Below, one piece after another: positions 1,845 to 43,263 of a stretch of DNA of 43,263 nucleotides; position 1 is the stretch's first letter, and the number at the start of each line of letters is the position of its first letter. Source of the DNA: Chiloscyllium plagiosum (lineage: Eukaryota); contig NC_057719.1 in assembly GCF_004010195.1 (NCBI RefSeq), forward strand, positions 40,285,478 to 40,328,740, written 5' to 3'. The notes beneath the pieces are model-generated. The model made no database searches, was not told the DNA's origin, and was given only the letters and a program-made list of their open reading frames with translations. A program made the position numbers and the translations under genes.

Positions 1845-2494
1845 CTGATGGAGTTTAATTTAGATAAATGCAAGGTGTTGTATTTTGGTAAGATGAACAA
1901 GGGCAGAACTTACACAATTAACAGTAGGGCTCTGTTGTCAAACAGAGTGATCTCGGCATCAAGGTACATAACTTTTTGAAGGTTGCTGCACAGGTAGTGT
2001 GGTAACGAAGACATTTGGTGAGCCTGCCTTCATTGCTCAGACCATTGAGTATAGGAGTTGTGACGTTATGTTGTGATTGTAAAGGATGTTGGTGAGGCCA
2101 CTTTTGGAATACTGTGTACAGTTCTGGTCTCCTTGCATTTGGACGGATATTATTAAATTGAAGGGGGTAAAGGAAAAGATTTACAAGGATGATACTGGAA
2201 GTGGAGGGTTTGAGTTTGTAAGGAGAGGCTGGATAGGCTTTTTTGCCTGGAGCATCAGAGGCTGGGGCGACCTTATGGAAGTTTATAAAATCAGGAGGGA
2301 CATTGATAAGATGAGAAAGGTCTTTTCCCTAGAGTGGGGGAGTTCAAAACTACAGGGCAAAATTTTAAGGTGAAGGATTTAAGAAGAACCTGAGGGGTAA
2401 CCTTTTCACACAGATGGTGGTTCATATATGGAATGAACTGCCAGAGGAAGTAGTAGATGTAGATACTGTTACAGCAGTTAAAAGACATTTGAAC
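1845..2494 (+). mobile_element. CR1 LINE 3' ORF2 fragment, frameshifted
   Basis: MEFNLDKCKVLYFG and LVRPLLEYCVQFWSP motifs, shared with other CR1 copies in the window. Confidence 0.9.
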
Positions 2495-2514
2495 AGTGCA
2501 TATTACATTGTCCA

Positions 2515-3174
2515 ACTAGCTCAGAGCTGGATCCAAGAGTGAACAGAATCCCTGACACTCCTGTTTATTTTATTTTTAAGCAAAGGGAGAGTCCTGGACA
2601 CTCCAGCTCCCTCAGAGCCAGCTCTCAGAGCGAACAGAAGCTCTGATGGTCCTGTTTTTTTATTACCCCCATATTACTGCCTAACTGCAGTAGTGCTTAT
2701 TTTTTCCTCAGCATCCATGTTATGTGTGTGCAGGTGTGAGACACAGTGAGAGACACAAGGTGCACGAATTTTTATTCAGTTTCCACCACTAGGAAGAACA
2801 GAAATACCCAAGTGGCCAGTGACAAACAGTGCCCTTCACATCAAAGGGTAATGCTCACACTCCTGTTTTTTTTGTTGTGTGTGTAGGTGCAGGACACAGT
2901 GAAGAACAATGTGCAGAAATCTTTATTCACATTGTCCCTTGGTTTTTTTTTCCCTTTTTTTGTACACGAATCTTTATTCAGTTTCCACCACCAGGAAGAA
3001 AGGAAACACCCGAGTGGCCAGTGACAAGCACTGCCCTTCACATCAAAGGGTAATGCTCACACTCCTGTTTATATCTGTAAGCCAGGACTCCCTGATTGGA
3101 CCCAGTTAACAGCCCTTATCAGGGAATTCATTTCCAAAGAGCTCCACCTGATTGACCTCATTCCAATCATTACA
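2515..3174 (-). mobile_element. Gypsy LTR (5' part) carrying tandem insertions of a non-LTR element
   Basis: The minus strand begins TGTAATGATT... and aligns with the LTR at 31532 that precedes a gag. TATA is at 3068-3073 (minus). The target ACACTCCTGTTT recurs at 3059-3070, 2857-2868 and 2555-2566, with a diverged copy at 2646-2657. Confidence 0.7.
2658..3058 (-). mobile_element. Tandem 5'-truncated 3'UTR copies of a putative Tx1/L1-type element
   Basis: Units 2869-3058 and 2658-2856 are homologous to 31735-31930 (CCCTTTGATGTGAAGGGCA..., GGAAACTGAATAAA, terminal hairpin). Each has an A-rich tail and is bounded by the repeated target. Confidence 0.6.
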
Positions 3175-14789: not shown

Positions 14790-15760
14790 TTTGACTTTGG
14801 ACATGGCATCAGCCACAGGCAGCTCCAACTTTGTAGGGGTATGTTCCCTCCCATGGGCAGTTTTCCAACTGACAGCATCAGATTTTTGGATTAATTTTTA
14901 CAGACCTGGAATCAAAACACACAAGTTCAGCACCCCACTGGGTCTCTGTTGCTCCCAGCTTGGCAGAAGTTTCAAAGCAGCCGATTAGATTGTTGTCAAT
15001 AAATCATTCAAAATCTGCACCACTTAGATTGTCTCTAAACCTCTGGGAAATAACTCATCTCAAAGCTGGCAGTTTGAGTGTCATATTGGAGTAATTCTCC
15101 ATGTTCCTTTCATTCAGCTTGAGACTCCAACTGGCCTAAGCCGTAACCACTCTTTTCTGACCTTCTGTGATACCATCACTCCGAGGTCAAGGAAATTCTT
15201 TGAAAGGAAGATGGAAACCTTGGTAGCCAAGGACAGATGATGAGACAAGTTTCTATTTGAAGGTATAAAATGAGACTTCACAAGGAGTTGGATGCCAAAT
15301 TGTGATGTCCCAGGAAGTCATTCCTTGTATATCCTTTCCCAACCATTCTTGCAGCATTCTGATTTCCTCAGTAAATAATGGAATGTGGCATCCAACTGTG
15401 CATAGCCTTTCACAAACCATCTGCAGTAGCCAGCTAGTCAAAGGAACCCACACAGTTCCCTCACATCTTAAACCAGGACCATTCCTTTACTGCTTTGATT
15501 TTCCTATCATTAAGAATAGTGTCTTCCTTGGTAATGAGATTACTCAGATACAATACTTTGGTCCAGAAAAGTTGGCACTTCTTTGGTTTCACTTTCAAAT
15601 TAAACTGCAACAAGTGGGATAAGACAATGTCTCATCTTATGTCATCCAGATATACTAAGAAAGATTGGAAATTAATGTTTACTAAATCTTTATCCACCAA
15701 ATGTGGGCAGGTGGCAGTGGCGTTATAGAGCGCAAAGGGCATTCTTATGTATTTGTAACG
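14790..15760 (-). mobile_element. Decayed Gypsy LTR-retrotransposon pol (RT and RNase H)
   Basis: Minus strand reads RMPFALYNATAT, LVYLDDI (YLDD at 15641-15652), LKVKPKKCQLF, and the RNase H-like RFRDNL..IDNN..SAKLGATETQW. The element may extend to about 16200. Confidence 0.8.
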
Positions 15761-31350: not shown

Positions 31351-31647
31351 CACCTGAATTGTCATTCATGATGTGTTTTAATTACATTCTTAAATGCTAT
31401 TGTTTTTATTTTTCAGGTTTAGGTGTCCATTGTTAAGAACAGATATACAGATGCACAATCAAAAGTCAATAATGTTTCACGAAATTCTTCATTCTCTTCG
31501 AAAATGAAAATAATTGCTACATAGTATACCATGTCGTGATTATAACAAGGTCAGCCAAGTCGACATCAAAGAATATGAGTTCCCTGATTGGGTCTGTTTA
31601 CCTGGTCAATCGAGGAGCCATAGCTGACAGGTATAAACAGTAGTGTT

Positions 31648-32293
31648 TACCAGGAGGTGTGGAGTGTTTTATTTCCCCCTCCGATTCTATTTTGATTTAA
31701 TCCCTTCCCTCCCCTTCACTGTTTGATCACACAGCATTGCCCTTTGATGTGAAGGGCACTGCTTGTCACTGGTCACTCGGGTGTTAATTTTCTTCCTAGT
31801 GATGGAAACTGAATAAAGATTTGTACACCTTGTGTCTTTCACTGTGTCTCACACCTGCACACACACAACATGGGTACTGGGGAAAAAATAAGCACTACTG
31901 CGGTTAGGCAGTAGTGTAGGGGTTAAGAGAATAAAAGATAAACAAAAAAAAGAAAAGAGAGAGAAACAGCAGTGTTCAGCGCGGGGTGTGGTGTGTTTTA
32001 TTTTCCTCTCCGATTCTATTTTGATTTAGTCCCTGCCTTCTTTTTCACCTTCTTTGATCACTCAACATTGTCCTTTGCTTGTCACTCCCTCCATGAATTT
32101 TCCTTTCTTCCTGGTTGTGGAATATAAATAAATACTTATGCAATTGTTGTTCTTCACTGTGTCCTGCACCTGTGCCCAGACATGACATGGATGTTGGGGA
32201 TTAAATAAACACTACCACTGCATGGCAGTAGTGTGGTGCTTTAAAAAAAAATGTAACCAAGTGATTAGAATTTTCTCAGAAAAAGAATAAATG
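31648..32293 (+). mobile_element. Two tandem 5'-truncated putative Tx1/L1-type elements inside the LTR
   Basis: Units 31648-31963 and 31977-32293. Each starts with an ORF end (PGGVECFISPSDSILI* at 31650-31700; ARGVVCFIFLSDSILI* to 32029), followed by a 3'UTR, hairpin and A-rich tail. Target repeats at 31635-31647, 31964-31976 and 32294-32304. Confidence 0.7.
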
Positions 32294-32387
32294 AACAGTA
32301 GTGTCAGGTATTCTGACCACTCTCAAAGCTGGCCCTGAGGAAGCCCAGAACAGTGAAAACTACTATGCAAATATAAATAAGTGTGGG

Positions 32388-32459
32388 AGGAGAGTGGTGC
32401 AGCACGAGTGTGTTGGGCCCATAACCCACAGGTCGATGGATCGAAGCCATCTTCTGTTA
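32388..32459 (+). pseudogene. Initiator tRNA-Met (CAT) derived pseudogene
   Basis: 72 nt, colinear with vertebrate tRNA-iMet as recalled (11 substitutions by my count). It retains GGGCCCATAACCC and the initiator-type GATCGAA T loop. The D-loop GG is lost. Confidence 0.88.
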
Positions 32460-32464
32460 TTATA

Positions 32465-32604
32465 GGCCTCCATTCCTGATGAAAGGCTTTTGCCCGTAAC
32501 GTCAATTTTCCTGCTCTTCGGATGCTGCCTGACCTGCTGTGCTTTTCCAGCACCACTCTAATCGAGACTCTGGTTTCCAGCATCTGCAGTCCTCACTTTA
32601 GCCG
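32465..32604 (+). mobile_element. Penelope terminal repeat fused to the tRNA copy
   Basis: CCTGATGAAAGGCTTTTGCCCGTAACGTC...CAGCATCTGCAGTCCTCACTTT; same family as 11682-11820. Confidence 0.85.
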
Positions 32605-34299
32605 AAATATAAGTAAAGGGTGACTTGGTGATAGCAAGAGAGAAAAAATACTCTCCTGAAGAAATTTGTTTGCAAAGTTGTCTTTGAATTGGGTTAAGCA
32701 TTTCTGGAACTATGCCATTATTTGTAAAACGTGACTCATTCAATCCTCTCATTGAAAACTGGGCCAAGTATTTGGAAATAAAGCATTATTTTTTCCAGGC
32801 AAAAAATATTTGGGAAAATGGAAAGCAGTGAGTAATTCTCCTGACAGAATGTGGACCTCAAGTTTTTTAGTTATTAGGAGCCTAATGTTTCCTGAGGCAT
32901 CAGATACTAAAACCTTCCAGCAGCTGACGGACCTAGTTAAGGAATATTATGACACCAAACCTCCTCTAATTCTGAGATTAGTTTTACTCGGCAGTTCGAG
33001 AACTGGGGAATCCGTTTCAGGATTTTTGACGAGGTTAAGACAGCTAGCAGAGGCATGTGACTTTGGTTTAACCTTAAATGAGATGCTGACAGACCCTATG
33101 GTATGCGAGATTAATGATGTAACCATGCAAAAGCACCTATTAGCTGAAACCCAACTGAATTTCAAACAGGCACTAAAACTGGCTTTGTCATTAGAAATTG
33201 CTGCAAGGGGAACATATGAATTAGAGTACAGTGGGCACCCTCGCTAGGCTGACTCAGCTTGGTAACACAGTGAAGACAATGGCATACCCTGAACACAGGG
33301 ACTCTAGTCACTTCACACCAAAACGGCAAAACACAGCCAAATCTCGGCCAAATGGTTAAAACTTTCTCCAGAAACCAGCAACTTTCTCCAGCAACTTATT
33401 ATAGTTGCTGCTGTTATGTGGACTTGAGACAACAACAGAGTTCCACTAGGCCTGAATTGATGAAGAGAATTCACAGCTTAGTATCCAGGAGAGTGCACAC
33501 TCTGGAAAGTCCACCAACATCTGGCTTGGAACAGATAAGTTGCTTAGCAACGTCCAAATCAGAACCAATTAAAATAAACATTGGTTTAGTAGTCACCAGC
33601 TTCTAATGGAGGTTGATACTGATGTGGCTATATCAGTGATTGCAGAACCAACCTTTAATAAAATTCAGCCTGGACTCCAACCCTTAAATTTGCATAAGAC
33701 CTTGGCGAGACTGAAAACCTATACCAGGTAACCTTTACAGAATAAGGGTACAACTTTGGTTCCGGTCTTGGATGAGAAGCAGTTGGCTCAGTTGCTGACT
33801 TGTATTAAAAGGCTTGGGCCCAACCCCTGATGGGGCAAAATTGGTTGAGAAAGTCTCATCTTGATTGGCTCAACATTTTTTGATTCGAAAATGGCTGCCT
33901 GACTGAAGTCCTAATTAAATACGCGGAGGATTTTCAAATGAGCTGAGGCCACCTTGCAGTTGACCAGAAAACAATTCCACAATTCTGCAAAGCCTGCTGA
34001 GGACCATTTGACTTATGTGCAAAAGCAGAGGCAGAATTCAGGATGCTGGAAAGCAAAGGAATTATCAAACGAGTTGGGCAGCACTGGTCGTACTGATTGT
34101 GAGTCCAATGAGTCAGTTTGATTTTGTCGGGATTTTAAACAATGGTAATCTACTTCTCACAGCTGGGTAATTACCCAAACCCTCACATAGAAGACTTATA
34201 CACAGGTGGAGGGCTGTCCTTTTACTATAAATTATAACTATAATTTTATATTACTTTTACGATAATGTATTTACTATGAATCTTTTACAATAACTTATG

Positions 34300-34445: not shown

Positions 34446-34696
34446 ATTTAGGCAGCATCAGGCTGAAATAGCAGATAAAGGAAATTTAAGAGAAATATAT
34501 TTAGTACACTTAAATGGTATAATATGATTTCAATTAAATGAATTGTAGAGTCTGACATGGAAAAATAAACAAACCTTATTGTTTGCAAAATGAATGTTTA
34601 CAGTTAATATTTCTTAATCATACAATTGCAACAAAGCCAACTACAGTGTTCAACTTGCATTAAATAGCAATTCGTAATCTTAAAAAAAAAGTGGAA

Positions 34697-34820
34697 ACAT
34701 GGGTGCTGGGGAAAAATAAGCACTACTGCAGTTAGGTTGGGGGGGGGGTGTTATAAAAAAGAGAAAAAAATTAACTGAGGATTTAGAACCTCTAAAAAAA
34801 GAAAAAATATGTACAAAAAG
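34697..34820 (+). mobile_element. Extreme 3' fragment of the putative Tx1/L1-type element
   Basis: ACATGGGTGCTGGGGAAAAATAAGCACTACTGCAGTTAGG matches 31868-31908, followed by an A-rich tail. Confidence 0.65.
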
Positions 34821-34874
34821 GTGGACCTTTCTGAACCTGCAGGAAAGAAGGAAACAGAAGGCCTTGAAGCCGCA

Positions 34875-42109: not shown

Positions 42110-43000
42110 TTGGTGTCAAAACGTGCAGCGCTAGAAAAGCACAGCAAGTCAGGCAGCATCGAGGAGCAGGAGAGTCGAAGTTTCAGGCGTAAGTTTCAGG
42201 GGTTTGGTGGGAAGGTGCAGCTGAGAGATAAACAGGAGGATGGGGTGGGGCTGTGGTGGGGAGGTAGTTGGGAAGGTGATAGGTAGATGCAGGTGGGGGT
42301 GATTATGAAAAGTTTCTGCCAGATGTGAAAAGATCCTTGGGGATCTGGGATGGAGTGAGGGTGCTGGTTTTACACGTCTTGCGGCGGCAAGGTAAGGTGC
42401 CAGGTGTGGAGGGTGGGTTGATGGAACGCTGACTCTCCTGTTCCTTGGATGCTGCCCGACTGGCTATGCTTTTTCAGTGTCACAGTTTTTGACACTGATC
42501 TCCAGCATTTGCAGTTCTAATTTTCTCCTCCCTGATAGGGGGTATGGACCTAATGATGGAGTCATGGAGCGAATGGTCTTTGTGGAATGCAGATAGGGGT
42601 GGGGAGGCAAATATACCGCTGGTAGTGGGGTCTGATTGTAGGTGGCAGAAATGGCAGAGGTTAATGTGCTGTATTTGGTGATTAATGGTGAGGACTAGGG
42701 GGGTTATTTCCTAGATGCAGTTGGAGGGTTGGAGTTCAAATATAGAGTTGCGGGAATTGGAGGAGATGCATTGGAGGGCATTGTTAATCACGTGGGAGGG
42801 GAAATTGTGGTCCTCGAAATAGGAGGCCACCTGGGATGTCCCAGAGTGTAACTGCTCCTCCTTGCAAGCAGATACAGCAAAGACAAAGGAATTGGAAGGA
42901 AGGGATTGCATTTTTACACGAGAGTTGAGGTGGGAGGAATTGTCGTCCAGGTAGCTGTGGGTGTTGATGGATTTGAAATAGATGACCATGTTGAGTTGGT
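42110..43000 (-). mobile_element. Penelope-like element fragments with a nested opposite-strand pLTR (42430-42532)
   Basis: pLTR at 42120-42190. Peptides YFKSINTHSYLDDNSSH and FEDHNFPSHVINNAL resemble the Penelope RT C-terminus. Confidence 0.8.
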
Positions 43001-43009
43001 CACAAAAAA

Positions 43010-43263
43010 AAGGAGGTCCTCCAGGGTAGTAATATCTGGATTACTACCAGTTCCACCAGCTAGTGAGGGCAGGAATAGGAGAATAGAGCAGATGGATGCA
43101 TGGCTGAGGAACTGGTGTATGGGAAAAGGATTCACATTTTTGGATCATTGGAATCTCTTTTGGGGTAGAAGTGACCTGTACAAGAAGGACGGATTGCACC
43201 TACATTGGAAGGGGACTAATATACTGGAAGGGAAATTTGCTAGAACTGCTTGGGAGGATTTAA
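43010..43263 (+). mobile_element. CR1 ORF1 SGNH esterase C-terminus, runs off the window edge
   Basis: RVVISGLLPVP...DLYKKDGLHL (DxxH motif). Confidence 0.85.

Follow-up and report, generated by a model that had tools for sequence, protein, structure and literature searches.

A very abundant LINE of the L1 group, most likely of the Tx1 clade, appears to prefer but not to require the site T|AAA.A..AGTG across the TATA box of a Gypsy LTR, and its insertions rebuild this site and stack there; the probability of this reading is put at about 0.7. It was obtained from a stretch of 43,263 nt of the Chiloscyllium plagiosum genome, here called the window, in which two copies of the LTR were detected by blastn and both were filled at the same base. 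At the first of them (locus A) two 317-nt LINE 3′ ends alternate with three copies of a 12-nt target in a 5′ LTR. At the second (locus B) pieces of the same element were found on the opposite strand, and a further very short copy (copy C) lies outside any LTR.

Sequence data and contig comparison

The evidence from beyond the window consists of the contigs of four public runs, which cover three organisms. A repeat at 32478-32600, unrelated and of very high copy number, dominated the contig comparison, whose listing comprised 15 of the 562 joints, 24 of the 3492 loose ends and 40 of the 354 rows of variants. The window has a G+C content of 41.5% and is dense in CR1-like and other repeats. Contigs from metagenomes, viruses and prokaryotes gave 0 matches in DNA pattern scans, as expected for a vertebrate repeat.

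Stacked insertions in the 5′ LTR of a decayed Gypsy element

The U3 region of LTR A (31532..31646, plus strand) starts with TG at 31532, carries TATAAA at 31632-31637 and was high-copy in all four public runs. It belongs to the 5′ LTR of a decayed Gypsy element, whose internal region is broken by stops and frameshifts (32739..34222, plus strand) and in which tblastn of polyproteins located gag (32739-33244), protease (33597-33725) and the start of the reverse transcriptase (RT; 33809-34222). The gag ORF (32756-33244) reached a score of 0.96 to retrotransposon gag clusters (Atlas) and had 4222 relatives at E up to 0.001 (HMMER), and Pfam assigned no family to the gag ORF alone. RT, RNase H and integrase were present in Gypsy order in five of the ten relatives scanned (P0003, P0034, P0052, P0119 and P0150; in P0089 in the later part). 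The Gypsy nature of the host element, claimed earlier from the sequence alone, is thus borne out both by gag, protease and RT behind LTR A and by relatives with RT, RNase H and integrase in this order. Because gag, protease and RT lie downstream on the plus strand, locus A is a 5′ LTR and its inserts are in sense orientation; the sense orientation that had been claimed for the inserts was found at both LTRs. The window holds no paired 3′ LTR, the Gypsy element being cut after 34222 and the LTR end disrupted. Elsewhere in the window, the RT of a Gypsy polyprotein gave a weak tblastn match at 15482-15757 (minus strand, E 4e-7), a second old remnant of an LTR element. Moreover, a stretch of the whale-shark gene model P0001, annotated as "zinc finger protein 704", is 63% identical to a third of the gag ORF, which would make it either a piece of a transposon within the model or an exon that was joined wrongly. 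P0001 is the only relative of this gag that carries a name, and it fits a shark as the host.

The first copy of the target (AAACAGTAGTGT, 31635..31646, plus strand) begins three bases into TATAAA, and the ends of the duplication would place the first-strand nick between 31634 and 31635, that is inside the TATA box. It is followed by unit A1 (31647..31963, plus strand), which comprises the last 17 codons of a LINE ORF (31647-31700), a 3′ UTR, a hairpin at 31892-31917 and an A-rich tail, and by the second target copy (AAACAGCAGTGT, 31964..31975, plus strand). Unit A2 (31976..32292, plus strand) has the same 5′ start as A1 and a composite A-rich tail, and the third target copy (GAACAGTAGTGT, 32293..32304, plus strand) follows; the second and the third copy each show one change relative to the first. 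The R/U5 region of LTR A then continues at 32305..32630 (plus strand), with an approximate LTR end, and contains at about 32381-32604 an unrelated retro-insert flanked by AAATATAA repeats (32369 and 32605).

In both units the in-frame ORF terminates in ...SDSILI*, followed by the 3′ UTR and the A-rich tail, exactly as the sequence-only reading had described them. The two tandem units, which it had given as about 315 bp long, are each 317 nt in length, and of the target starts that it had listed those at 31635 and 31964 are correct, while the one placed at 32294 actually lies one base earlier at 32293. A1 is near the abundant form of the LINE family, and A2, which is 73-81% identical to A1 and indeed the more decayed of the two as claimed, represents either a diverged subfamily or an older copy. 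The junctions LTR/A1, A1/A2 and A2/LTR were all bridged by contigs of organism B and the junction A2/LTR was additionally bridged by one contig of organism C, with a difference of ~3-5%. The filled locus A is therefore an old, fixed insertion and not an assembly artefact.

A second LTR filled at the same base

The U3 region of LTR B (3059..3174, minus strand) starts with TG at 3174 and carries TATAAA at 3073 and a target copy at 3070-3059. Downstream of it lie unit B1 (3058-2962) and a short piece with its own A-run, B1b (2930 to ~2874), which together occupy 2869..3058 (minus strand) with no target copy between them. The A-run of B1 starts 12 nt after an internal AATAAA. The next segment (2658..2868, minus strand) consists of a target copy at 2868-2857 and unit B2 (2856-2658), whose 5′ start is the same as that of B1. 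It is followed by the R region of a different LTR copy, with the target variant AAACAGGACCAT (2567..2657, minus strand), which ends in an A-rich stretch in register with an AATAAA-like motif of LTR A. A last target copy (2566-2555) then leads into the host R region of LTR B (2490..2566, minus strand), which is cut off by a CR1-like repeat. The three target copies at 3070, 2868 and 2566 are identical (AAACAGGAGTGT), and the LTR is filled at the same base as LTR A. B1 and B1b are joined via an A-rich spacer (2869-2961, minus strand) and overlap by ~19 nt of UTR sequence, a join for which either a template jump or a nested insertion would account.

LTR A and LTR B are 71.8% identical over 117 nt of U3 and 69.1% identical over 81 nt of R. 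At all ten positions listed between 31558 and 31622 at which the contig majority differs from LTR A, copy B has the majority letter, so the two LTRs are copies of one abundant family. A diverged second copy of the same LTR on the minus strand, with pieces of the same element at the same site, had been noticed before and was confirmed with an extent from 3174 to ~2490; the differing 5′ truncation points ascribed to it were found between loci A and B but not within either stack, where the 5′ points are identical.

The foreign R region at locus B is ~90 nt long and 68-71% alike to both host R regions. Because it lies together with B2 between one pair of host-type duplications, a single insertion with 3′ transduction explains both, and the foreign piece was probably transduced from a donor at the same site of a third LTR. 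Such a transduced R would imply that the donor was read through into R, whichever promoter was used, since the piece itself does not reveal it.

Independence of the insertions at the two loci

Over a core of 96-98 nt the identity is 90.6% for A1/B1, 89.8% for B1/B2 and 86.5% for A1/B2, and A1 and B2 are 88.1% identical over 194 nt, whereas the host LTRs are 69-72% alike. Position 7 of the target is T or C in the three copies at locus A and G in all three at locus B. The 5′ ends at the two loci are 85 nt apart, and the 3′ ends differ too. The insertions at A and B are independent, and the repeated insertion at one LTR site that had been proposed thus stands.

The opposite explanation, which the sequence-only reading had itself named among the outcomes that would overturn it, is a single ancestral insertion multiplied together with the LTR as Gypsy replicated. 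Reverse transcription copies U3, and with it the insertion site, to both LTRs, and an insert could have been carried along in this way. Nevertheless, this explanation is hardly credible and is excluded for loci A and B, because the inserts are much more alike than the LTRs, the duplications carry host-specific letters and the 5′ and 3′ ends differ between the loci.

Identity and abundance of the inserted element

In run X6, 128 contigs depart just before 31659 into the open frame LFRERWAPQG (hand translation) instead of the LTR, and the upstream frame is open for all 30 letters listed, which corresponds to ten further codons. Since the ORF runs on upstream in other copies, the element is a LINE, and the earlier assignment to the non-LTR elements was right. 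The hallmarks of target-primed reverse transcription are present in the form of a poly(A)-type tail, target duplication and 5′ truncation. The C-terminal peptide, of which 17 codons are in the window, we take to be Tx1-like, and the units represent the 5′-truncated 3′ part of a LINE of very high abundance, most likely one of the Tx1 clade within the L1 group. Among the 134 of 270 ORFs of at least 55 aa that lie in non-repeated regions, Pfam detected no L1 or Tx1 domain, and three weak matches remained below the cut-off. The placement of Tx1 within the L1 group follows the cited part of PMC3747384.

The bins of the 3′ UTR reached a summed depth of 0.13-5.3 million in the contigs versus 1-120 in the unique flanks. 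The ratio of the summed contig depth of the element to that of the LTR U3 was 35.9, 9.4, 7.7 and 7.1 in the four runs, a ratio that is not a copy number and misses LTR copies less than 80% alike; it suggests that many copies are located elsewhere than in LTRs. No empty-site joint was present among the 15 of 562 joints listed, where absence proves nothing.

The 3′ hairpin of A1 has a z of -5.25, compared to -0.9 to -1.6 in the other three copies, and no compensatory change was found in its ten pairs. The 3′ hairpin was thus not established, the structure being strong in one of four copies and without covariation. The 3′ arm of the hairpin (31908-31917) includes the final 9 nt of target A, and the arm is also present in A2 (32225). 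The match has a P of ~0.004 after the fact and extends over only 7 nt for target B; by this likeness the arm could add RNA or cDNA pairing to the choice of the site. Additionally, the tails of A2 (32245-32292) and copy C (34763-34808) share an A-rich segment of ~45 nt that is not poly(A), with a P of ~0.0015 against crude shuffles, and the element may thus extend further in the 3′ direction, with this segment following an internal A-run.

Target motif and probable preference

Copy C (34683..34824, plus strand), which was absent from the earlier description, comprises a very short stretch from the 3′ end of the element (34696-34811); it is not located in an LTR and lies between 13-nt near-repeats at 34683 and 34812. 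It is 5′-truncated and 92.9% identical to A1 over 42 nt. Its flanking near-repeats are alike at 10 of 13 positions, fit the motif AAA.A..AGTG and lie at a TT|AAAA junction. The motif AAA.A..AGTG[TG], which was drawn after the fact, has nine sites in the window, six of which are at element junctions and three of which are empty.

Two of the three loci in this selected window are therefore in LTRs, and one, copy C, is off the LTR at a similar motif, so that the element is not confined to one target in the manner of Tx1L or R1Bm. A family has been classified as target-specific when more than 20% of its flanks fall into one target type (cited part of PMC4494074); the depth ratio of 7-36 and the two of three loci in a selected window are compatible with either side of this value. 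The targeting is read as a preference and not as exclusivity.

The preferred reading would work as follows. The endonuclease would favour the site form T|AAA.A..AGTG, and the T|AAA step of TATAAA would supply both the nick and the T-run for pairing with poly(A). The bottom strand would be nicked opposite TAT|AAA, the poly(A) tail would pair with the freed T-run, and reverse transcription would follow, which would usually be aborted early. A top-strand cut 12 nt further on would lead to the duplication of the 12-nt site, and as the duplication would keep TATAAA and the site intact upstream, later insertions could stack there. The TATA box is probably in the target for its sequence and not for any promoter need of the LINE. 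As the inserts shift R by ~300-600 nt from the TATA box, they should impair the promoter of that LTR. A full-length copy might profit from the LTR promoter, but the dead 3′ ends found here cannot.

The sequence-only reading had gone further and proposed a Tx1-like hyperparasite of the promoter. In its full form this would be a Tx1 family with strict specificity for the TATA box of Gypsy, inserting there either to be transcribed from the LTR promoter or to silence the host. The sense orientation at both LTRs fits this proposal, the probable transduction points to a donor within an LTR that was transcribed through into R, and transcription from the flanking target has been proposed for SINEU in the cited part of PMC4494074. 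However, the proposal is weakened by the one of three window loci that is outside an LTR (copy C) and by the summed depth of the element, which is far above that of the LTR; moreover, every insert here is a dead 3′ end that gains nothing from a promoter, and read-through into R would equally be expected from the LINE's own promoter. A dedicated promoter parasite is therefore considered unlikely.

A LINE without any particular relation to the LTR has to be weighed as well, namely a promiscuous L1-like element with a T|AAAA preference only, whose stacks would result from its abundance and from DNA-level tandem duplication between short repeats. The very high abundance is in line with it, as are the location of copy C at a TT|AAAA junction, which is of the L1 consensus type (cited part of PMC1950540), and the common 5′ junction of neighbouring units, which duplicates would have. 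Against it, the base that was hit is the same in both LTRs, with 197-389 generic sites available: the P of three random loci reaching both LTR sites is ~1.6e-4 among 197 or 4e-5 among 389 generic A-tract junctions, values that are inflated by the choice of the window for this feature. Tandem duplication disagrees with the identity of A1 and A2, which past the first 100 nt is only 73%, in contrast to 88% for A1 and B2, and with that of B1, which resembles A1 (90.6%) at least as closely as B2 (89.8%) and has a different poly(A) site at its end. Promiscuous insertion combined with duplication is thus an improbable cause of the stacks.

Shared 5′ junctions within the stacks

The preferred reading leaves one feature that could teach something new, namely that neighbouring units begin at the same base in both stacks although they are not plain duplicates. 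In the stretch 31659-31700, 38 of the 42 letters of A1 recur in A2, among them letters that are rare in the contigs, namely G at 31683 (~1-2% of depth) and T at 31685 (4-21%). B1 and B2 have two unusual letters in common in the first 8 nt and are identical over the first 27, and 10 of the next 71 positions differ (P ~0.03). Microhomology as the sole cause of the shared 5′ ends was rejected, as ~3 nt are possible at locus A and none at locus B.

The shared junctions hint at a resident copy that guides the next junction. In a tentative extension, which we regard as possible but doubtful, copies resident in LTRs would act as donors, as the probable 3′ transduction of an LTR R would indicate, and would also form a self-feeding landing pad, in which the new cDNA pairs with a resident and thereby fixes the 5′ junction of the newcomer, with an extended duplication. 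The cDNA would pair with the 5′ end of the resident behind the target, the top strand would be cut there and the overhang would be trimmed, so that the resident would set the junction. This model would account for the same-base starts and for rare letters only near the start in both stacks. On the other hand, 5 of the first 12 nt are not shared by A1 and A2, positions 9-27 at locus B are conserved in A1 too, and the number of stacks is two; the coding end shared by A1 and A2 may also be conserved between subfamilies anyway, which counts against a guided junction.

Pairing of cDNA with the target before the second cut has been proposed for R2 and was left open for APE LINEs in the cited part of PMC6895275, and pairing of L1 cDNA with nearby DNA, though not the shared-junction pattern, is described in the cited part of bioRxiv 2024.08.27.596794. 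The shared junctions bear on the completion of the LINE 5′ end, which is called "poorly understood" in the same part of PMC6895275, and a landing pad, if true, would preserve in natural sequence how an APE-type LINE carries out its second-strand step.

Relation to known target-specific elements

Preferential insertion into LTR retrotransposons is known from the crocodilian Tx1-clade families Tx1-8_Crp and Tx1-4_AMi (Kojima 2015; this and the following comparisons refer to the cited part of PMC4494074). Locus A works like these families, with the difference that the Tx1 clade is putative here and that the host is a shark, and the position at the TATA box may or may not be common to them. Tandem copies of SINEU-3 sandwich the duplicated target by sequential insertion in Mariner-N4_AMi, the independence of which was argued from truncated copies; the arrangement of SINEU-3 and Tx1-Mar around a duplicated target is the same as here, but theirs are SINEs in a DNA transposon while ours are LINE 3′ ends in an LTR. 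The target preferences of families span 13% to 90% in that source. As LTR-preferring Tx1 families and tandem stacks are already published there, the locus is a fresh example of a known targeting habit, and its novelty had been over-rated in the sequence-only reading. Among the papers listed in a literature search, which did not extend to Repbase and Dfam, none described a family from sharks that inserts at the TATA box of Gypsy.

Tx1L of Xenopus laevis, an APE-type LINE that targets Tx1D, resembles the present element in having another transposon as its target (cited part of PMC1950540, also for the following). Unlike Tx1L, which is stringent and has a DNA-transposon target, the element described here has an off-target copy in the window and a presumed L1-like T|A nick. 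With human L1 (5′-TTTT/AA-3′) it shares the poly(A) tail, a duplication of 12-13 nt, 5′ truncation, probable 3′ transduction and, presumably, a nick at a T-run/A step; human L1 is promiscuous, however, and repeated insertion at one base of one LTR family is not the L1 pattern.

If the preference holds genome-wide, the element would be a high-copy vertebrate LINE that uses the TATA box of another retrotransposon as a safe landing site, and many natural junctions would be at hand for reading the preference of its endonuclease. A cost to the Gypsy host would then be plausible, since R is moved away from the TATA box by the insert.

Other repeats in the window

The insert between the AAATATAA repeats in LTR A (32381-32604, plus strand) consists of ~75 nt and, behind them, the terminal part of a repeat of very high copy number, with a depth of up to 2e7. 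The ~75 nt presumably resemble initiator Met tRNA, and neither ARAGORN nor Rfam found a tRNA in the insert, which is possibly a chimeric retrocopy. ARAGORN reported none in the window, and Rfam gave nothing at the gathering score, with two chance low-score matches near the locus. At 42852-43262 (plus strand) a match to a GDSL-like esterase was obtained below the cut-off (E 3e-5), a domain that we take to be typical of CR1 ORF1.
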